Sequence record: MT446419.1
From: Escherichia virus TH53
Strand: one strand, 5' to 3'
Length of the DNA: 52,329 nucleotides
Shown here piece by piece: positions 2,314 through 21,101 of this stretch. Under the pieces are notes generated by a model. It was not told the DNA's origin. It saw only the letters and a list, made by a program, of their open reading frames with translations, and made no database searches. Each line of letters starts with the position of its first letter. Position 1 is the first letter of the stretch. The translations under genes were made by a program, and so were the position numbers.

Positions 2314-2514
2314 ATGAATACTCAACAAATCAATCAAATCGAAAACTGTTTCAATCCTCACCACACTTGTAGCATGACTGATTTATCTCGTCCTACAGTG
2401 GAGGAGACTAAAGACTTCTTAGAATTGTTAGCAGAATATAAACAAGAGTCGCATGTATTATTACATTCATTCTTACACAATTCTGGATACTTTGATACAG
2501 AGATACCATTCTAA
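2314..2514 (+). CDS. hypothetical small protein with C-terminus ...GYFDTEIPF
   Basis: ORF in track from 2290; second in-frame ATG at 2314 has GGAG 7 nt upstream. C-terminal FDTEIPF resembles the E. coli SSB tail DFDDDIPF. Confidence 0.45.
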   Translation: MNTQQINQIENCFNPHHTCSMTDLSRPTVEETKDFLELLAEYKQESHVLLHSFLHNSGYFDTEIPF

Positions 2515-2520
2515 TATTGA

Positions 2521-2546
2521 GCCTGTCTTCGGACGGGCTTTTCTTG
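2521..2546 (+). terminator. intrinsic terminator-like hairpin
   Basis: GCCTGTC-TTCG-GACGGGC stem-loop (one G-U pair) followed by TTTTCTTG, directly after the stop at 2514. Confidence 0.5.
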
Positions 2547-2611
2547 TGTTACCACAATTTAATTCCAATATTCAAGCAATATTGCTGCATGTAATATTGT
2601 TTCAATATTCG

Positions 2612-2630
2612 ACATTAGTTGGATGTGAAG
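2612..2630 (+). promoter_or_regulatory. conserved motif ACATTAGTTGGATGTGAAG, candidate phage-RNAP promoter, copy 1
   Basis: One of seven intergenic copies of a roughly 19-nt motif, all on the + strand. Confidence 0.5.
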
Positions 2631-3451
2631 TAACAGAATACGGAGAAGTATTCCGCATGTCATGTTGAAATCATTCTAGAAACATTTCAGCATGTCAACT
2701 AAACATACAGTGTTGTAATGATGTGGCAATCATTGAACTCCCTGTCTTTGGCCGGACAAAGTTCCAACAACCATGTGTGAAGTAGGATTATCATTCGAAA
2801 CTGTTACTTCAATATAGCATGTTCAATTGCGACAATATTGCCCCATCTCCTATTATAAAGGCCCACCCACAAGCCGGGAGATAACTTTGGTAATATTGGA
2901 ACTTTTGGACATGCTTCTTTCTTTCAATCAGAATTCGAAAGGGGAGAAGAAGTCGGACAAAGCCTCTCGTTTTCACGCAGAAGCCGCCCCGATTTTGAGC
3001 AACAAATATTGTGACAATATTGTCGCAGTATGGCATGTAAATATTGCTACAAATTGGCATGTTGGAATGTGGCAGAATTGTTAGAGGACTAATCACCTCG
3101 AAGATACAATCGTCTACCAATCTGGCATGTTAATTTTGTAACAGTATTTGTGCCAATTTCGCATGTAGTATTTAACCCAATATTCTTGCAACCCGCATGA
3201 ATACTGGCTTCCAGCCAAGCGAAGGCTTTATCATCGCATGTAATATTGTGACAATATTGGGATAAAACCCTTTATTTAATTAGTTTTATTATGCTGTACA
3301 TGGTCGGTTTTCCGTACCTGCTTGCTCCAATCTTAATGTGCCAAATACGTTAAGTATGGGAGTAAACCTGTAATTAATGGTGCATGTTTAATTGTGACAA
3401 AATTCGTCTATTTGGCAGATGAGTTAGTTGCAATTAAGCATGTTCATTTAT

Positions 3452-3470
3452 CATTAGTTGCATGTGAATA
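3452..3470 (+). promoter_or_regulatory. variant motif CATTAGTTGCATGTGAA, copy 2
   Basis: Degenerate copy about 190 nt upstream of the first early gene at 3662. Confidence 0.35.
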
Positions 3471-9657: not shown

Positions 9658-10048
9658 TGTTAAGCTGGGCCAACGTTCTCTTGACCGATTAAAGGGCGTA
9701 AACCCTTCATTGGTGGCAGTTTTCAAGCGTGCATGTGAAACAATGCCGTTTGACGTGACTGTTCTTGAAGGATTGCGCACTTATGAGCGTCAACAAGAGC
9801 TTTTAAAGCAGGGTGCAACCAAAGTTTCAGTTAGCCGACACATGTCAGGCAATGCTTTAGACATTGCACCATACCCAATTGACTGGAATGACCTCGAACG
9901 ATTCCAAATTGTAGCTGAACATATGTTCAAAGCCGCAGAAGAGCTTGGAATTGTCATTCGTTGGGGCGGAACATGGGAGCGTTCATTCACTAAGCCAGTG
10001 AAATGGGCTAAATTCCTAGACGCACCACACTTCGAACTTCCAGCATAA
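9650..10048 (+). CDS. peptidase M15 family (VanY / L-alanyl-D-glutamate peptidase-like) muralytic enzyme
   Basis: Seen: SRHMSGNALD (SxHxxGxAxD zinc-binding signature) and DAPHFEL (second His). No signal peptide. Confidence 0.75.
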   Translation: MSNVKLGQRSLDRLKGVNPSLVAVFKRACETMPFDVTVLEGLRTYERQQELLKQGATKVSVSRHMSGNALDIAPYPIDWNDLERFQIVAEHMFKAAEELGIVIRWGGTWERSFTKPVKWAKFLDAPHFELPA

Positions 10049-10068
10049 CTTCATCAATGGAGCATCCG

Positions 10069-10347
10069 ATGAATTACGAAGATATCCCAAGAGAGTTGAA
10101 TGCACTGGAGTCAAGAACCATCCGTGCAGAGAATATTCTCCACCAGCACCTATCAATTAACGTAGATGATGAAAAGAGGATGCGGTACACTATGGAACTT
10201 GACGATGTAGTCTACACTGTCAGTTACAACGAGAAGGCTGCTATCCTCAGTGCACTTATCAAAGGCGGGAATGAGCGAATCAATCAACTTAAGATTCTGG
10301 ACACAGAATTGAGAGGTACTTGGGAGAAACTAAATGCAAAACGATAG
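10069..10347 (+). CDS. hypothetical protein
   Basis: ORF in track from 10057; ATG at 10069 has the better GGAG spacing. Confidence 0.45.
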   Translation: MNYEDIPRELNALESRTIRAENILHQHLSINVDDEKRMRYTMELDDVVYTVSYNEKAAILSALIKGGNERINQLKILDTELRGTWEKLNAKR

Positions 10348-10882
10348 CATTGCTCAAGCAGTAGAACAGCTTAAGTCCTGGCGTAGAGATGAAACCTTAT
10401 TGGTTCGTTTCTACACAGGCGAAACTAATTCTGAATTTGTAGATGCGTGGATTGATGGCCTGTCTTGGCGTCACTATGATTTCAACATGCGAGATTATTT
10501 GCATGAAGAGTACGGCATTGAATACCCAGAAGACGGTACATATGACGTAATTGAATCAAACGAAGAAGATGTTACCGAAGTTTGCTTTGCCAATGGGCTA
10601 TTCAGCATTCGTAAATATGATAAGTTCAATGAGCTGCTTGTTGACACCGATTTGGATGTAATTCTTGCAGCATTCCGCAGTGGTGAGATTGATATTTTCA
10701 CTGTGGATGATTTGAACGACATGTTCATCACACGTTGCGACTCAATTACAGAATATTTGAAGCAAAGTGAGGCACTGGATATTCCAGACCGCCTTGCACC
10801 ATATATTGATTGGGATGCAATCACCAGAGATTATGGAAGTGACTACATTTTCTCTGAGGGAATATTATTCTTAAATGCGTGA
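10334..10882 (+). CDS. highly acidic protein (candidate DNA mimic)
   Basis: Seen: very high D/E content across 182 aa. DNA-mimic function is inference. Confidence 0.5.
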   Translation: MQNDSIAQAVEQLKSWRRDETLLVRFYTGETNSEFVDAWIDGLSWRHYDFNMRDYLHEEYGIEYPEDGTYDVIESNEEDVTEVCFANGLFSIRKYDKFNELLVDTDLDVILAAFRSGEIDIFTVDDLNDMFITRCDSITEYLKQSEALDIPDRLAPYIDWDAITRDYGSDYIFSEGILFLNA

Positions 10883-11114
10883 TTTAAATATTGCTGAACT
10901 TGAGGCTGGATTGATTGTTCACCACCAGCCTAGAAACACTTTCTATCGTATTCTTGGGCCTACAAAGATTAAAACTCACTGCGGAAGTTGGGTGGATGGG
11001 TTTGCTTACCAGGAAGTGAAGAAGTACGGGGACCATACTTTCTTGAGTATTGACTCTTCTACTATCTACACACGACCGAAAGAGCTATTTGACTCAGATT
11101 GGAAAACACTATAG
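10875..11114 (+). CDS. hypothetical protein
   Basis: ORF with weak RBS. Confidence 0.4.
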   Translation: MRDLNIAELEAGLIVHHQPRNTFYRILGPTKIKTHCGSWVDGFAYQEVKKYGDHTFLSIDSSTIYTRPKELFDSDWKTL

Positions 11115-11183
11115 TTCCAGGCGGGTTTCTTCGAAGTGCCAAGCGGGTTTTGTGCTCGCATTGGCCTTCGGCTTTAGTCTGAA

Positions 11184-11200
11184 ACATTAGTGGGATTTGG
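11184..11200 (+). promoter_or_regulatory. motif ACATTAGTGGGATTTGG, copy 4
   Basis: Preceded by TCTGAA as in copies 5 and 6. Confidence 0.45.
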
Positions 11201-11324
11201 TTCTGGCCACTTAGGGAAGAAAGGCATTATACACTTATCGCCAAATGGGTGTCAAGCATTTTCTTCATTTATTTTAATTTATTCTTATTATTCTTTTTGT
11301 TTGGAATATTGGAATAATTCTGAA

Positions 11325-11343
11325 ACATTAGTTGGAATTGAAG
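11325..11343 (+). promoter_or_regulatory. motif ACATTAGTTGGAATTGAAG, copy 5
   Basis: Tandem with copy 4, about 140 nt downstream, separated by an AT-rich stretch. Confidence 0.5.
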
Positions 11344-11979
11344 AAACAACATCAGATAATAACTTTGTAACTCGGTAGACCGTTGCGGCCGCATCGTGTG
11401 AGAATGTTCGACTCATTCTACAAAGTTATTTTCGATGGAATGTTTCCATCATATACATTTATCTTTTAACATAGGCCATAGGGCCGGAATACTTCTTCGC
11501 AGAAAAGCTATTCACTTGTTATAGGCGATGTATTGGGATGAATTGGAACTAAATAAGCAAGCTGTTAGGGCTGAATAATTAGAGGGTCATGCCTCATGCT
11601 TATGTTAGTCATTCGAAAATAGGTTTGTGCCACAAGCTGCTGGTGCTCTGAGGAAGTCGGACAAACAGGGCTTAGAGTGGCATAATCCGCACAAAACCGC
11701 GCCACCAGCTATGCCAAAGCAGGTGGATTGGGTGAATGTATTGGGAAGGGTTGCAAAGCCTCTGTGACACGCCTGAGCCACAAGGCGACGACACTCATGT
11801 GATTAGCGTATCGCACCCTAACGGGAGCAACCCTTCACCAATGCAGTTATCCAGAATTGACACAAACGGTAGGCAGTGGCCCGATTTTCGGCCTTCCTGC
11901 GCTACTCTGTGGCCTGTTTCCTGGGCCAAAAGATGAGAAGAGAAGTCACAAACATCGAATCGAAAATTGGAGAGTTCCT

Positions 11980-12270
11980 ATGATTCGCAAACATTCTATC
12001 CGGGTCATTAAGGCCCGCAATATTCACACAGGAGAGATGGAAGCATTTGCTTTCTTGGGTGGAAGGTTTTATTTATTTGGTTGGGAAGGAAGCAATTCAA
12101 AGTTTGCATTCTTTATGAATATGTATTCGATTAAAGAGTTGTTAAACAATGCGACCTACAACCCATCTTTCATGGAATATTGTTTCGGCAAGCCAGTCGA
12201 ACATCTTCTATCCAAATCCTTCATTTACAGCTGGACAACAGACCAGCCAATGTACGGAGTTCCATTTTGA
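11980..12270 (+). CDS. hypothetical protein
   Basis: ATG with GGAGAG 5 nt upstream; the track ORF extends to 11857 but that start lacks an RBS. Confidence 0.45.
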   Translation: MIRKHSIRVIKARNIHTGEMEAFAFLGGRFYLFGWEGSNSKFAFFMNMYSIKELLNNATYNPSFMEYCFGKPVEHLLSKSFIYSWTTDQPMYGVPF

Positions 12271-12557
12271 ACTTACAAGACAAATCTAAAGAAGAGTTGA
12301 TTGAGATTATCCAGAAAGAGCACGAACTCGCTGGCATCACGATTAACTTTGAACTCCAGGCAATGCAAGCTGTTGCTTTGGGGCATGGTCTAATGGCTAC
12401 ACTCATTCATGCCAAGAATGTGTTAGGCGTTGACAACGAAAAATACCAAATTCTGGAGAAAGCTGCGCAAGAGCGGATTTCGCAGTGCTTGGTGACATTA
12501 GTTGATTTGGGAATCGACGCAGAAACTGCGAACAAACGTATCCTACAAGGCCACTAA
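12267..12557 (+). CDS. hypothetical protein (TTG start; alternative ATG at 12180)
   Basis: GGAG 7 nt upstream of TTG overlapping the upstream stop; start uncertain. Confidence 0.35.
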   Translation: MNLQDKSKEELIEIIQKEHELAGITINFELQAMQAVALGHGLMATLIHAKNVLGVDNEKYQILEKAAQERISQCLVTLVDLGIDAETANKRILQGH

Positions 12558-12558
12558 A

Positions 12559-13233
12559 ATGTCTTATCATGATGATGACAAAGAGATTGCACTATCAACG
12601 TGTAAGCAATGGCTCAATGATAATGATGCCGTCTATCTTGCCAAGGAAGATGTTATCATTATGTGGGTCCATTTTAATCCAGAATCGAAGCGCGGTGAGT
12701 GGCAACGCTACAAGATGAAAGAGGCTTGTCGCATAATTAAAGCCACACGCGCTGGCTTCTCTGCTATGAAGTACATCAAGCCAGAGATGCTAATGCTTGC
12801 TGCACAGGAAGAAGAACGTGCATATAAGCAAGCTGTTAAATCTCGTTCAACTGTTCCTCCAGAGTTCTTTAATTTGGAGCGCGCTGGACACTTCAACAAT
12901 TTAGAAATGTTGACACTGTGCCTGTTGCAAGAATTAGTTGGAAGGGGTCAAAACATTGAAGCTGTTTGTCTTGGAGAACTCATGAAAGAGTTGTTCTCGG
13001 CAAAGGGCTTTGCTGTACCAAATCGAACTTTACGCTGGAAATTGTTGCGAGCAGTCGCGCAAGAAGCTGGTGTAGTTGTTCGTGACAGAACTAACCGACT
13101 TACCGTAACAGGAGTTGGGCGTTTTGTAGCAATCCAGATTGAGGGTTATGACGAATCAATCATCACTGAACTCACTGTCGCTGAGACAAAGGATTTAGTA
13201 AATAAAACACTGGAACGATTCAATAGGTATTGA
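12559..13233 (+). CDS. hypothetical protein
   Basis: First ATG after the upstream stop; no motif recognised. Confidence 0.5.
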   Translation: MSYHDDDKEIALSTCKQWLNDNDAVYLAKEDVIIMWVHFNPESKRGEWQRYKMKEACRIIKATRAGFSAMKYIKPEMLMLAAQEEERAYKQAVKSRSTVPPEFFNLERAGHFNNLEMLTLCLLQELVGRGQNIEAVCLGELMKELFSAKGFAVPNRTLRWKLLRAVAQEAGVVVRDRTNRLTVTGVGRFVAIQIEGYDESIITELTVAETKDLVNKTLERFNRY

Positions 13234-13262
13234 GTCGTTTGACGAATCAGAGCAGTTCTGAA

Positions 13263-13283
13263 ACATTAGTTGGATGTGGAAAG
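13263..13283 (+). promoter_or_regulatory. motif ACATTAGTTGGATGTGGAAAG, copy 6
   Basis: Ends 74 nt upstream of the ATG at 13357. Confidence 0.55.
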
Positions 13284-13356
13284 AGAAAGGCTCTTTAATT
13301 TTATCTAAGTCACGTCACCGTGGCGTGCAAAACTATTCAATATAAGGTATATACAA

Positions 13357-13695
13357 ATGGCTAAGATTGTAACCGTAACTCAGTACGAAGCTAACGATGG
13401 TTCCCTGTTCCTGACCGAAGCAGAGTGTAATGCACACGACTTCAAACTGGAAAACGGTGCTAAAATTGAGAAAGCTGCCGAAGCGTACCTGAACACCGTT
13501 GGTGCTATCGACCGTTCTCGCTCCATGCAGAAGAACACCATCGAGCAGTTCCTGGCATTCTACCTGCCGTGGGTTGAAGCTGGTGAGCCGGAAGTTGAGC
13601 GTACTAAGTTCGATACTCCGAAAGAAGCTAAAGTTGCTGACGCAAGTGTTGCCGAAGCTGCCGAAGCTGCGGTTGAAGAAGCTCCGGTATTCTAA
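13357..13695 (+). CDS. acidic, alanine-rich protein
   Basis: Strong RBS, own promoter-like motif, acidic C-terminal tail ending in F. Confidence 0.6.
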   Translation: MAKIVTVTQYEANDGSLFLTEAECNAHDFKLENGAKIEKAAEAYLNTVGAIDRSRSMQKNTIEQFLAFYLPWVEAGEPEVERTKFDTPKEAKVADASVAEAAEAAVEEAPVF

Positions 13696-14851
13696 GTTGC
13701 CGACGGCAAACTTGAGAGACTAAGCTAAATCGATCTGGCATGCACTGGAAGTTTTCCGGTGCTGCCTTGAACCCATTCTGAAAGGAAGAGTGGGCTTCAA
13801 TGAGCATTCTTGTGATTAGAGTTGGGAGGTAGGCCGATGCCCAATCTCGTGGCCCAGACAAGAGTGTTCATTGAAGTTATTTCAATATGGATGTACAGTG
13901 GAATGAGAAGCTTCTCCGATAAGAGGAGTGAAAGTAGCTGGAGGACATGCCCACAGAACTGACCGAGACCCATTACAGTAGTAGCGATTCACTACCGCGA
14001 AACAGTATTGAAATTGGCAACGGTTCATGCGGAAGGGCATCGGTGAAATCTACGTTCAGTACGCGTGGTGAAATGAAGGAGTAGTGTCCTGAGAATTAAC
14101 CCTGTCTGGTTGAATGCCAGAGTCCATATTGAAGTAGTTTTCTGAGTCTTACGACGGGCCTAAACTGCCTGGAGTTATTGCGACTGTTTTATTCATTTAA
14201 AATAAATGCAAATGATTCTGAAATGCGAGTTGCGGCTTAATTAAATTTAAGTCCTCTCCGTGGTCTTCCAATCCCACGTAACCAAATTTGGCGCATTGTG
14301 GCTTCGAGATGTGATTAATAAATCGGAGCAATAATTAATTTGTATTCTGCGATGCAATGCAGGCTTAAGTCCCTCAGTGCGCGTGGGGATGTGACAGAGT
14401 ACAAACTTAATTATGCAGTTGGATATTTCTAGAGGACGGACGAGCACACTGGAATGTCTTCAATTGGTTTAGTGTGAGAAGCTATGCCAATTTGAAACGT
14501 AACTCCTTGAGGAAGTGCTCCTCTGGATTTCCCTCCACACAGGAATCTCAAGCCTGTGGCAGCGACTTCGAAGCTGCACTGCGTAACCTAATTCACCCTA
14601 AAGTGAGTTGCCCTGAGCATGGAAATAAACTGCTCTAACCGATGGTATCTACAAAGGTAGATTAAATCAGGTTGCCTGTTGGTACTTGGGTTCAACACCT
14701 GCTTGCACTCGCAAAGTAGTGCCTCGTACCTGAGATGAAGTGAGTCGGGACCATCAATCCCACGTTATGTCAAAACACAGTAGGCGACTCACGGATTCTA
14801 CAAGCCTCGCAGTTCGGGAAAACCTGCGTTACCAAAACCCTCCTATTCTTT

Positions 14852-17334: not shown

Positions 17335-19101
17335 ATGATGAACGTTAAGCAATGTGTTGCCAAGATTAAACACGATGTACCAGACTGTAAATCCACATCT
17401 GGCAAGTCCTTACAGGTTTGGTTGAATGTCGATGAAGCTGGTAATAAGAATTTCTCTGGTTACTGCTTTGCGTGTGGCGTTCTAGTACCAAATCCTTATG
17501 GCAATAATCCGGAGAACATTCCAGAGATTAAAGTCAAGACTCCAGAAGAAATTCAGGAAGAAGTTGACGAAATCACTGCTTGTCCTCCGTTTGATTTAAC
17601 CCATCGCAGCATCGAGCCAGAATTCTGGAAGGCTGCTGGTGTTCGACTCCTGTATTCAGAGTATGATGGTAAGACTCCAAATGCTCTGGCACATGGCTAC
17701 ACCAAAAATGGTAAACTTGTTCGTTGGAAGATTAAACTTCTGAACAAGAAAGTTATGTGGTCGGTAGGTGACACCCAGGGCAACGACCCTTACAACTGGA
17801 TGGCTGCAAAAGCAATTGGCGGTAAGACACTGTTCATCACAGAAGGTGAAGAAGACTGCATCGCATTGCGTCAAATCCTCAAAACTATGAACCGTGGTGG
17901 TGCATATGAAGATTTGGATTTTGCTGTAATTAGTTTGAGTGATGGAAGTGATTCCGTACACAAATGTTTGTCACCAGTTGCAGAAGAAATTAAGCAACGT
18001 TGGGAGCAGGTTGTTATTGTATTTGATGATGATGAACCTGGACGTAAAGCTGCAAAAGAAGCGTGCCGATTGTTGCCTGGTGCAATGATTGCAACACTTC
18101 CAGCTAACGATGCCAACGATTGTTTGAAGCGTGGCTTGCTCAAAGCTACTCAATCAGCTGTTGTGTTCCGTGCTGCTCGTCCTCTGCCTACAGCACTTGT
18201 CAACAAAGAACTTCTTATGGAAGAGCTTGATGATGAGGTTGAACAGGGTGTGGATTATCCTTGGCCCAAGTTAACCGACTTAATGTTTGGTCAGCGTCGA
18301 GCCGAAGTTATTACAATCGGTGGTGCAGAAGGTGGTGGTAAAACTACCTTGTCCCGTCAGATTGTGCATCACAACATTACCAAGCACGATTGGGGAGTGT
18401 TTACTGCATACATGGAGGAAACTCCTACAGAAACACTGCGCCGAATGGCTGGCCTTAACGACAACTTGCCATATTGGGAACCTGCGTTTACTCGTGAAGA
18501 CCCTCGATATGATGAAGCTAAGTTCCGTCAAACTGCTGCGAAGATGCTTCGTAACATGGAGATTTGGGACCGCAAGCAAGCTGGAGAAGACCCTTATGAA
18601 ACCTGGGATGGGTTGAAGACGATTCTTCGTCAGATTGGACCAGACATTGATATGTTTGTCCTCGATAACTTAACCTACTTATCAGAAGGGATTTCTGCGT
18701 CAGAGAAGAACGACTTTCTGGGCAAGCTGTATGCAGACATTACAAAGTTAGCAGACCAGTACCAGTTCCACGTTAATATTCTGTCGCACCTTAACCCTGT
18801 TGCGAAAGGTCAGCGACCTCATGAAGATGGTGGACGTATCAAGAAGTCAGACTTTACTGGCTCTCGTGCTGCTGCTAAATATTCTCATGGCATGTTTGGC
18901 TTTGAACGTAATAGTCAGGCAGTTGACCCAAACTGTTCTATCATTCGTTCCATTAAGGCTCGTAAGAGTGGTAAAACAGAAGGCTTCAAGACGTATTATG
19001 ACACCGAATCTGGTCGAATTATTCAACGTTCTTGGGATGACTCGCTGTTCGAAACCAAAGAGATTGTTCAACTTACTAAGAAGAACGGTCCACACCAATA
19101 A
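17335..19101 (+). CDS. bifunctional DNA primase / DnaB-like helicase (T7 gp4-like)
   Basis: Seen: N-terminal Cys zinc finger, TOPRIM-like ITEGEEDCIAL and VIVFDDDEPGRKA, Walker A ITIGGAEGGGKTT, Walker B-like DMFVLDNLTY. Confidence 0.9.
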   Translation: MMNVKQCVAKIKHDVPDCKSTSGKSLQVWLNVDEAGNKNFSGYCFACGVLVPNPYGNNPENIPEIKVKTPEEIQEEVDEITACPPFDLTHRSIEPEFWKAAGVRLLYSEYDGKTPNALAHGYTKNGKLVRWKIKLLNKKVMWSVGDTQGNDPYNWMAAKAIGGKTLFITEGEEDCIALRQILKTMNRGGAYEDLDFAVISLSDGSDSVHKCLSPVAEEIKQRWEQVVIVFDDDEPGRKAAKEACRLLPGAMIATLPANDANDCLKRGLLKATQSAVVFRAARPLPTALVNKELLMEELDDEVEQGVDYPWPKLTDLMFGQRRAEVITIGGAEGGGKTTLSRQIVHHNITKHDWGVFTAYMEETPTETLRRMAGLNDNLPYWEPAFTREDPRYDEAKFRQTAAKMLRNMEIWDRKQAGEDPYETWDGLKTILRQIGPDIDMFVLDNLTYLSEGISASEKNDFLGKLYADITKLADQYQFHVNILSHLNPVAKGQRPHEDGGRIKKSDFTGSRAAAKYSHGMFGFERNSQAVDPNCSIIRSIKARKSGKTEGFKTYYDTESGRIIQRSWDDSLFETKEIVQLTKKNGPHQ

Positions 19102-19187
19102 CAGAGCTGCTACGCTGCATGGTTCGCCCACCAGCGTGGCCCTCACCAATCCATTGGAGCCATACTGTGTTGTATCCTTGGGAAAAT

Positions 19188-21101
19188 ATGTATGCCAGTG
19201 ACATTGAAACAACTGGCCTGTTGGAGCAAATGCGCAAGCAAGCTGCCCCACGTCTTCACAACATCGGATATATTGATGTTCTGACTCGTGAAGAAACTGT
19301 AATAGAGTGGACCGACAGAAAGTCTATCCAGGCATTTCTAGATACAGGCCCAACATTAATCATGCACAACGGCGCAACCTTTGACTTTGAAGCACTGAGG
19401 TTCCTGGGCTACGACGTTTCAAAATGTACACTAATTGATACTTTGTTTATCAGTTGGTATCTGCAACCTCGTCGTGTTAAGCACGGCTTAGAAGGTTACG
19501 GCGAAGAGTTTGGTGTGCCAAAACCAGTCATTGAAGATTGGGAAAATCAAACTCAAGAAGAGTACAACCATCGTGTGATGGAAGACTGCAAGATTCAGTT
19601 GAAGCTGTGGGAACAGCAATACATTCAACTCTTGAAGATTTATAAATCTCCTAGCGAAGTTAAGCGCTTCGTTGAATACCTGATGACAAAAGCTCGTCAA
19701 CAAGTTATTCAACAACGTACTCGCTGGAAGCTAAACATTGAGAAGGCATTGGCATTTAAGGCCAAGCTGGAACCAATGATTAAAGAGAAGACGGACGCGT
19801 TGGAAGCATCAATGCCACGTGTTCCGGAATATGTTATCAAGACCCGTCCAGCTAAATGCCACAAAATGAACGGGCAACTGTCTGCCACTGGAATTAAGTG
19901 GAAGGCTATTTGTGATGCAAATGGTTTGGATTGGAAAGACCCAGACCTGGCTATCAAAGTTCTTAAAGGTTATAAGAAGCCTAATGCTGGTTCACATGTT
20001 CAAATTAAGGATTGGTTGTTCAGCCTGGGTTGGGAACCGGAAACCTTTAAGTTTGACCGTAACAAGGAAACAGGTGAAACTCGCCAGATTCCGCAAATCA
20101 CTGTGAAGGATGAAGATGGCAATCCTGAAATATGTCCGAGCTTGCATAAGCTGGCGGAAAGAAACCCCGACTCTGGTATTCAACATCTTATTGGGATGGG
20201 CGTGTATAAACACCGTCTGTCTGTTGTTAATGGCTTCCTTCGCGACGTCGATGAAGATGGGTTCCTTACTGCACGATGTGGTGGCCTTACCAATACTTTA
20301 CGCCTTAAACATCGCGAACTTGTTAACCTCCCTTCTATTCGCGTATTTGGCGGTGAAGAACTGCGTTCAATGTTGGAAGCGTGGCGTGAAGACTACGAAC
20401 AGTTAGGCTCTGACTTATGTTCTCTGGAAGACCGTTGTAAGCACCACTTCCAATGGATGTATGACCCTGAATACGTTAAGAAGCAGTTGGCACCAGACTA
20501 CGATGCTCACCTTGCAATCGGCGTAATTGGTGGATTTATTACCGAACAGGAATCTCAGGACCACAAGGACGGAATTAAGAAGTGTAAACAACGTCCAATG
20601 TTTAAGACCACAAACTATGCTTGTCAGTATGGTGCTGGTATACCGACTGTAGCCCGTTCTGCTGGTTGCGACCAGAATACTGCTGCACGACTGCATAAAG
20701 CATATTGGGACTTGAACTGGTCAATCAAAGAGATTGCTGCAAACACTAAAGTTATCACAGTTGATGGTCAGATGTGGCAACAGAATCCAGTAAACAAATT
20801 CTGGTATTCGTTGCGTACAGAGAAAGACAGATTCTCCACATTGTGCCAGGGTACTGGTGCATATGTGTTTGATATCTGGTGTAACAACATCATTGCAATT
20901 TGTAATGAACGTTGGGGCTGTGACCCGCTTCTGTCTGGACAATTCCATGATGAATTGATTCTCCAGGTTAAGAAAGGCTTCCGAGATTTGTGGACGGACT
21001 TACTTAATGAAGCAATGGACCGAACCAACAAAGAACTTAAACTCAATCGTGATTGTGCATGTGATGTACAATTTGGCGATAACTACGCAGAGATTCACTA
21101 A
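19188..21101 (+). CDS. family A DNA polymerase with 3'-5' exonuclease domain (T7 gp5-like)
   Basis: Seen: Exo I MYASDIETTGL, Exo II HNGATFDFEAL, motif B KTTNYACQYGAG, motif C QFHDELIL. Start set at the ATG 19188; the track ORF opens at 19119. Confidence 0.9.
   Translation: MYASDIETTGLLEQMRKQAAPRLHNIGYIDVLTREETVIEWTDRKSIQAFLDTGPTLIMHNGATFDFEALRFLGYDVSKCTLIDTLFISWYLQPRRVKHGLEGYGEEFGVPKPVIEDWENQTQEEYNHRVMEDCKIQLKLWEQQYIQLLKIYKSPSEVKRFVEYLMTKARQQVIQQRTRWKLNIEKALAFKAKLEPMIKEKTDALEASMPRVPEYVIKTRPAKCHKMNGQLSATGIKWKAICDANGLDWKDPDLAIKVLKGYKKPNAGSHVQIKDWLFSLGWEPETFKFDRNKETGETRQIPQITVKDEDGNPEICPSLHKLAERNPDSGIQHLIGMGVYKHRLSVVNGFLRDVDEDGFLTARCGGLTNTLRLKHRELVNLPSIRVFGGEELRSMLEAWREDYEQLGSDLCSLEDRCKHHFQWMYDPEYVKKQLAPDYDAHLAIGVIGGFITEQESQDHKDGIKKCKQRPMFKTTNYACQYGAGIPTVARSAGCDQNTAARLHKAYWDLNWSIKEIAANTKVITVDGQMWQQNPVNKFWYSLRTEKDRFSTLCQGTGAYVFDIWCNNIIAICNERWGCDPLLSGQFHDELILQVKKGFRDLWTDLLNEAMDRTNKELKLNRDCACDVQFGDNYAEIH

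Follow-up and report, generated by a model that had tools for sequence, protein, structure and literature searches.

Escherichia virus TH53 (sequence record MT446419.1) was analyzed over its whole stretch of 52,329 nucleotides, here termed the window. A megablast search with positions 10000-14000 matched 61 phage records, among which the top ones (93-97% identity) belong to the Escherichia phages ST32, EcoM1, Bp7, SA91KD, Mangalitsa, and phiEcoM-GJ1 (hereafter GJ1) and the Yersinia PYps phages, which indicates that this DNA is a complete or nearly complete genome of Carltongylesvirus (Chaseviridae). The large ORFs are all on the + strand, and among them are the genes of a T7-type replisome, namely an RNA polymerase (RNAP; Pfam: RNA_pol, 333-2273), a primase-helicase (Toprim + DnaB_C, 17335-19101), and a family-A DNA polymerase (DNA_pol_A, 19119-21101). 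The gene on the left stops at 11114 and conserved coding sequence resumes at 11980; between 11115 and 11979 there is no conserved ORF and none longer than 66 aa, so that the ORF-poor region at 11115-11980 of the original prediction is borne out. Recognizing the syntenic region by its position 3' of an ArdA-like gene and a small ORF, we gathered the equivalent loci of 4HA13 (Sabourvirus), Faunus, PM1 and PP101 (Suwonvirus), Aeromonas phage phiA050, the Loessnervirus phages, and metagenome/Logan contigs, to which a search of IMG/VR added no further lineages. A gap of 480-1190 nt without a conserved ORF occurs at this position in every genus, and the annotation of tiny ORFs within it is inconsistent among the records. 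The upstream gene block, with its last gene ending at 11114, is closed by a terminator-like element (11132-11170, + strand), a stable hairpin followed by CUUUAG; the RNA fold of 11100-11200 has an energy of -37.6 kcal/mol (z = -3.2), and the SA91KD record has a rho-independent terminator annotated at the matching place.

Downstream of this element are two copies of a predicted phage-RNAP promoter motif, P1 (11178-11200, + strand; position weight matrix [PWM] score 29.9 bits) and P2 (11319-11341, + strand; 30.0 bits), whose start-to-start distance of 141 nt agrees with the earlier claim of two copies about 140 nt apart. The 22-nt form of the motif, TCTGAAACATTAGTKGGAWTTG, is found without mismatches at 11178-11199 and with two mismatches each at 11319-11340 and 13257-13278, where chance would give none (100 shuffles). 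A PWM scan recovered 12 strong copies (at 243, 2606, 3445, 7346, 11178, 11319, 12489, 13257, 17101, 21320, 26696, and 41204), all on the + strand and co-directional with the genes, with scores of 21-32 bits against a shuffle maximum of 16.7 (50 shuffles). The motif has the features of a promoter class: it is ~20 bp long, present in many copies, in the same orientation as the genes, for the most part intergenic, and often situated 3' of terminators, with most copies immediately 5' of gene blocks. The GenBank record of GJ1 (EF460875; Jamalludeen et al., 2008) lists nine "putative phage promoters" that match TH53 copies one for one in position; its promoters 4 and 5 (10496-10515 and 10637-10656 in GJ1), which are predictions only, have the same motif, positions, and spacing as P1 and P2, respectively, and also come after an ArdA-like gene and a small ORF. 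The SA91KD record annotates the same two sites, with its terminator placed before them. The promoter-like reading originally given to the two repeats is supported by these annotations, and the promoter identity of both is already known, as a prediction; we accept TCTGAAACATTAGTKGGAWTTG as a probable promoter of the phage RNAP. According to the ICTV profile (PMC12842549), the promoters of chaseviruses "have not yet been identified", and our literature search found no transcriptomes or origin mapping for Chaseviridae. Four genera have nearly the same sequence, TTTGGAATATTGGAATAAT, directly 5' of P2. Among the genera the order of modules is shuffled relative to the promoter copies, and six relatives have small gene cassettes inserted directly 3' of P2, each of which brings a further promoter copy.

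Between P1 and P2, and on the opposite strand, lies a predicted host promoter with a perfect sigma70 consensus (11226-11255, - strand), comprised of TTGACA (11255-11250), an N18 spacer, and TATAAT (11231-11226). A consensus scan of both genome strands gave this TTGACA-N18-TATAAT as the sole site matching at 12/12 positions, where a shuffled genome is expected to have 0.025, and all other sites fell below 11/12. In a comparison of 11 divergent lineages, all have a perfect -10 hexamer and 10 have a perfect -35 hexamer, the remaining lineage having TGGACA (5/6); the spacers of these lineages measure 17-18 nt (18 nt in most) and are mutually just 53% identical. With both hexamers, an 18-nt spacing, and agreement at 12/12 positions, the box would be expected to fire as a host promoter, directed leftward against every gene of the phage. 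In the divergent lineages compared, a P1-type motif always lies 36-55 nt from the box and is convergent with it; the predicted starts therefore face each other over ~27 bp, the predicted leftward start of TH53 falling near 11219, about 27 bp from that of P1. For the leftward transcript we found no intrinsic terminator and no evident target or ORF. A minus-strand peptide encoded 3' of the promoter (ORFs of 41 aa and 31 aa) was rejected on inspection, because the shared residues stem only from the repeated DNA word GTTCCAAGC, the frames differ among genera, and there is no Shine-Dalgarno sequence. Similarly, the inverted repeat in the spacer was given no weight as a hairpin or operator, since its registers shift, though many lineages have one.

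In Loessnervirus and L057, both hexamers are kept at a spacing of merely 8-10 nt; this cannot be a promoter, fits decay after a deletion, and also allows a non-promoter role for the boxes. The module itself is missing in L041, L054, and L058, and is therefore widespread but dispensable. The leftward unit bears some likeness to lambda oop/pO and ColE1 RNA I/RNA II, in that it would be short, run antisense to the final part of a rightward operon, lie beside a candidate origin, and give overlapping convergent transcripts. However, the polymerases would differ here (host versus phage), and neither a terminator nor a defined antisense RNA is visible. None of the records examined (GJ1, SA91KD, and others) annotates the minus-strand sigma70 promoter or the word arrays and RNA elements described below; the new content of this analysis is thus a conserved antisense consensus host promoter with an AT-rich, word-bearing upstream region, and a set of covarying RNA modules.

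The AT-rich tract (11256-11318; 17% GC, not assigned to a strand) directly adjoins the -35 box and extends to P2. Its segment 11258-11317 is 85% A+T and is the most AT-rich 60-nt segment of the 52-kb genome (top 0.006%); the strongly AT-rich stretch that had been noticed between the two motifs thus proves to be the extreme of the whole genome. The tract is composite, with a promoter-proximal A/T tract at the position of an UP element and pairs of iteron-like words just 5' of P2. As to the first component, 13 lineages have an A+T content of 64-88% over the 50 nt lying 5' of the -35 box, where A-runs fall at about -38 to -46. UP elements reportedly follow a consensus (Ross, 1993; Estrem, 1998); the A/T tract occupies the -40 to -60 region expected for one, its match to the consensus was judged by eye only, and it may act as an UP element on the adjacent box. 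The organization is comparable to that of promoters of the rrnB P1 type, which combine consensus hexamers with an A/T tract at about -38 to -60 (GAAGAAAATGC-TTGACA in TH53, AAAAAATAATGC-TTGACA in PM1), but differs from them in the 18-nt spacer of most lineages, the orientation opposed to all phage genes, and the lack of an evident product. Suwonvirus, L051, and L056 keep the sigma70 box and a short A/T tract where P2 is not adjacent, which indicates that the AT-rich DNA travels with the host promoter and not with the promoter pair. The role of upstream region to a conserved leftward sigma70 promoter explains the tract at least as well as a replication origin does.

The second component consists of the words RGAATA/TATTCY, of which TH53 has four (TATTCT at 11280 and 11289, GGAATA at 11303 and 11311) and 4HA13, phiA050, Faunus, and the metagenome locus L049 have 7-10. 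They are enriched in five lineages (4-10 versus ~0.2 expected, p < 0.0005 each) and paired 8-10 bp apart in both direct and inverted orders, and in L055 they take the form of four palindromic RGAATAWATTATTCC units. The words are missing wherever the tract has no adjoining P2, and no arrays were found in Suwonvirus, L051, and L056. Their pairing resembles that of sites bound by a dimeric protein; to the DnaA box, the RcsAB box, and the IHF and Fis sites they showed no convincing match.

The DNA from P2 to the gene at 11980 has a different character, and comparison of the loci indicates that its poverty in ORFs is explained by a structured RNA of the + strand. It opens with a near-invariant leader, GGAATTGAAGAAACAACATC (11334-11353, + strand), which is able to pair with 11434-11446 around a variable, stem-closed cassette (11354-11433, + strand). 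In TH53 the predicted fold of this cassette is that of a degenerate tRNA-like element, with an acceptor-like stem (11363-69/11419-25) and a T-arm-like hairpin (11402-11418); neither ARAGORN nor Rfam calls a tRNA or tmRNA in TH53, the cassette included. Cassette content varies even among close relatives: the metagenome locus L049 has a true tRNA in the slot (Rfam RF00005, 49.3 bits; also called by ARAGORN), GJ1, 4HA13, MLP1, and TH53 have tRNA-like versions with defective D or anticodon arms, and a plain hairpin is found elsewhere. The cassette is followed by a conserved hairpin, GAUGGAAUGUUUCCAUC (11434-11450, + strand). Of the 19 loci examined, 16 have it in near-invariant form; L051 has a variant, and none was found in PM1, Nougat, and L043.

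Two further elements show covariation. The first is a 57-nt motif (11551-11607, + strand), in which a 7-bp helix (11553-59/11597-603) encloses the near-invariant 22-nt loop AGCUGUUAGGGCUGAAUAAUUA and a variable hairpin. Pairing is seen in 93% of its alignment cells versus 32-41% with slid partners, compensatory changes occur at 10/11 pairs, and the covariation score is 0.668, as against at most 0.12 in shuffled data (0/500 shuffles). A covariance model of the motif finds one copy per genome, also in loci outside the training set. The second is a 3' domain of 230 nt (11723-11953, + strand) with a long-range helix of 21 pairs (~11729-11752/11829-11853) around a hypervariable multi-hairpin insert; after the helix come CAAACG, two hairpins, and an invariant GUCACA just 5' of the ribosome-binding site of the gene at 11980. 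Here 89% of the cells are paired versus 36-43% when slid, and 13/21 pairs show compensatory changes; many of the pairs are G-U and valid only in RNA of the + strand. The GC content of the domain is 52%, versus 44% for the genome. No Rfam covariance model matched TH53 at its gathering score, and at E values up to 5 the segment 11000-12100 gave two chance-level matches only. The association of a conserved, covarying non-coding RNA with a tRNA or tRNA-like gene, 3' of a strong phage promoter, is shared with the T4 species 1 and 2 RNAs, GOLLD, and ROOL; in contrast to these, the TH53 elements match no Rfam sequence or structure, and the 3' domain ends next to a ribosome-binding site, so that it could serve as a leader. 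Any functions of the 57-nt motif, the 3' domain, and the cassette would be those of a processed RNA, of a leader, or of both.

Taking these features together, we propose that the interval forms the central part of a conserved control region between genes of the Carltongylesvirus genome, in which host and phage promoters are combined with a folded RNA, and we give this explanation as a whole a probability of roughly 55%. Early in infection, the host RNAP would bind the consensus sigma70 promoter; its footprint and its leftward transcript would face P1, with ~27 bp from start to start, and P1 and the read-through from the left would be gated until the host RNAP is displaced or shut off. This gating of P1 by the host promoter is what we infer from the convergent geometry. 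P2, or P1 alone in some genera, would then transcribe a non-coding folded RNA of ~640 nt, carrying the tRNA-derived cassette, the 57-nt motif, and the 230-nt domain next to the ribosome-binding site of the following gene. The transcript might be a processed RNA and/or a cis-regulatory leader for the gene block that starts at 11980.

The original prediction had read the two promoters and the AT-rich stretch between them as a candidate replication origin resembling the primary origin of T7, in which the tandem promoters are reportedly followed by an AT-rich region (Saito et al., 1980; Fuller and Richardson, 1985). By analogy a T7-like origin at 11178-11345 is possible, but the features fit it only in part; we hold it to be a tentative alternative, less likely than not, that is compatible with the transcriptional reading. 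In such an origin, P1 and/or the host leftward transcript would prime DNA synthesis, the 85% A+T tract would unwind via negative supercoiling between the divergent sigma70 promoter and P2, and the RGAATA/TATTCY arrays would be the iterons for an initiator, all of which is compatible with the promoters also driving gene expression, as they do in T7. Origins of the T7 type are not known to depend on iterons or on an initiator, which counts against this reading. In its favor, each T7 origin needs a T7 promoter and the primary one has the tandem pair phi1.1A/phi1.1B (PMC8373140). The two systems share two phage-RNAP promoters ~75-140 nt apart, an AT-rich segment of ~60 bp, and an RNAP, a primase-helicase, and a family-A polymerase of the T7 type. 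Further, no DNA of the genome is less stable than the tract, the predicted promoter P1 reads into it, and the order of P1 followed by AT-rich tract is kept in most lineages. Against this, the tract does not lie 3' of both promoters and instead sits between them, 66-125 nt 3' of the start of P1 and 5' of P2, with a consensus host promoter interposed that faces P1 and with repeated words inside it. Moreover, in T7 the primary origin is next to the RNAP gene; here 9 kb separate the two. The ORF-poor repeat region at 2451-3460, just 3' of the RNAP gene, with 13 GCATGT-type repeats between the motif copies at 2606 and 3445, fits the position of the T7 origin better. Cumulative GC skew, which was tried as an origin indicator and set aside, rises almost monotonically across the genome with no turning point near 11.2 kb.

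The phyletic pattern is also uneven. The architecture is present in Carltongylesvirus, Sabourvirus, Faunusvirus, and Suwonvirus, in phiA050, and in several metagenome lineages, and is absent from Loessnervirus, L041, L054, and L058, and hence it is not conserved across the family; even where the tract is kept, as in Suwonvirus, L051, and L056, it may lack both the adjoining P2 and the word arrays. This patchiness is weak evidence against an origin, since T7 can do without its own primary origin (PMC8373140). The words do lend the locus an origin-like appearance, since they are enriched in direct and inverted pairs 8-10 bp apart (with the four palindromic units of L055) next to DNA that melts easily and has divergent promoters on either side. 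In this they resemble the iteron origins of lambda (lambda ori) and of plasmids with Rep proteins, which have clustered direct or inverted repeats about one helical turn apart beside an AT-rich segment, but they are just 6-8 bp long, vary in number and order by genus, and are absent in several genera, and TH53 itself has just four hexamers. The candidate for a protein that might bind them is a conserved Orc/Cdc6-like winged-helix protein of 224 aa (12559-13233). The winged helix is a generic fold, and the protein is also carried by lineages without the words, namely Loessnervirus, L041, and L058, from which both tract and words are missing. At the level of sequence, the best candidates for an origin are the word arrays in the tract, together with the repeat cluster at 2.5-3.5 kb; the sigma70 upstream region and the structured RNA of the control-region explanation account for the tract and for the ORF-poor DNA, respectively.

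A more ambitious combination of these elements would make the module the principal origin of most chaseviruses and one of a new kind, with the sigma70 and phage promoters divergent across an iteron-bearing unwinding element, the protein encoded at 12559-13233 bound to the RGAATA arrays, and the promoter motif also marking the genome ends. We regard this joint reading as unlikely. Its last element touches a separate possibility, which we also judge improbable, that the ATTAGTTGGA motif serves, in addition to or instead of being a promoter, to mark sites of DNA ends or nicks (e.g., through a terminase or nickase recruited by promoter-bound RNAP), with P2 being one such site. The Yersinia phage PYps23T is the one close relative with ends determined experimentally, as a direct terminal repeat of 2,339 bp (PMC8762354), and both boundaries of this repeat fall exactly after the ATTAGTTGGA of the copies equivalent to those at 243 and 2606 in TH53. 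Likewise, the flopper record is opened at the identical point of its P2 copy, between CATTAGTTGGA and ATTGAAG, and the Navette record ends 5 nt past the GGA of another copy of the motif. Against a general rule of this kind, which we rejected, stands Pectobacterium phage PM1, neither end of whose 2,665-bp repeat is at a motif copy, and the 4HA13 record begins like that of PM1. In addition, a junction within a shared 10-nt repeat cannot be placed exactly, PCR chimeras or breaks in the assembly graph could mimic such ends, and the placement of the majority of copies just 5' of gene blocks is that of promoters. The ends at the motif in PYps23T and flopper might reflect real end formation in the genus, the ambiguity of the junction, or an assembly artefact.

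The remaining alternative, that the interval encodes a small protein (the 62-aa ORF at 11190-11378, + strand, or other small ORFs) and that the AT-rich stretch is coding, is very improbable: the ORF is open in TH53 and GJ1, and a small ORF is annotated at the corresponding position in Mangalitsa (Mangalitsa_026, 189 nt), but in 12 of the 14 close relatives the frame, read from the equivalent codon, is cut to 28-54 aa by premature stops or shifted by 1-nt indels, its counterpart is unrecognizable in other genera, a PHROG search found no family for it, it spans both promoter copies and the sigma70 box, and the cassette insertions of the six relatives lie inside it. A conserved small protein at this ORF had been named as an observation that would speak against the origin, and since the ORF is not conserved, the origin idea is not refuted on that ground.

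Chaseviruses are myoviruses with a T7-like RNA polymerase. For them, the control-region explanation favored here would single out the sole consensus host promoter of the genome, placed face to face with a phage promoter, as a candidate host/phage transcription switch or priming site, and it places two or more new covarying RNA motifs, together with a slot of tRNA decay, directly behind a predicted strong phage promoter. If the module is an origin, the T7 paradigm would reach into another virion lineage, and if the joint reading were true, transcription, replication initiation, and end formation would all be tied to one 10-bp signal. If the reading as RNA holds, these elements would be new phage RNA families encoded beside an anti-restriction gene.

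Experimentally determined genome ends in one relative coincide with copies of the predicted phage-RNAP promoter motif. The PYps23T terminal repeat is 2,339 bp long, and both of its boundaries fall exactly 3' of ATTAGTTGGA in motif copies that match 243-265 and 2606-2628 of the window. In the flopper record the break falls at this same point of the motif, within its counterpart of the P2 copy (11319-11341; window equivalent 11340/11341), and the Navette record ends 5 nt past the GGA of another motif copy; at the ends of PM1 (Suwonvirus) no motif copy is found. The copy starting at 243 is also the phage-promoter-like motif that precedes the T7-type RNAP gene itself (333-2273). The 'putative host sigma70 promoter' annotated upstream of this gene in phiEcoM-GJ1 is not conserved in the window, where TTGACG is replaced by CTACGA. 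Across the + strand of the whole window, there are no sigma70 matches at 11/12 or better and only three at 10/12.

Cassette insertion has a hot spot just 3' of P2, at window position 11346 (relatives' loci L001, L002, L004, L006, L007, L011, L013, L014, and L027). Six close relatives carry an extra 110-320 bp directly 3' of P2, with a third promoter copy at the end of the insert. Faunus, the Aeromonas phage phiA050, and PM1 have a small ORF in this slot, which in Faunus and PM1 encodes a CxxC...CxxC (zinc-ribbon-like) peptide; the inserted 133-aa 'SbcC-like' ORF of phiEcoM-GJ1 lies farther downstream. Within the predicted folded RNA at 11723-11953 (+), a segment of about 50 nt (11760-11812) is wholly unlike among the window, MLP1, BSBP01, and PYps16N, which apart from this segment share over 90% identity in this region. 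Judged by eye, every version seems capable of forming its own hairpins, and the segment looks like a swappable variable arm. The Mangalitsa record (MN045229) is of the same length as the window, 52,329 nt; the two are only 93-96% identical in the region studied, with a coordinate offset of about 733 nt.

At 11115-11160, immediately past the stop that ends the upstream gene, a GTTCCAAGCNGG-like word is present in two direct copies, which overlap the terminator-like hairpin (11132-11170); the pair is kept across genera (the window, the Sabourvirus 4HA13, Faunus, and PM1) and is displaced in Loessnervirus. At 83% A+T, the segment 52205-52270 ranks second for AT content among windows of the genome. 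It lies in the non-coding DNA that precedes the RNAP gene and holds AGAATA, TTATTCC, and CAATATTG words resembling those of the other two non-coding regions.

A second ORF-poor region (2451-3460) lies immediately 3' of the RNAP gene, flanked by the promoter copies at 2606 and 3445. The GCATGT hexamer occurs 21 times on the + strand, and 13 of these copies lie here, mostly as part of the longer GCATGTnnAATTGTGACAATATTG. This repeat cluster is close to the terminal-repeat boundary. The position that it occupies is equivalent to that of the T7 primary origin.
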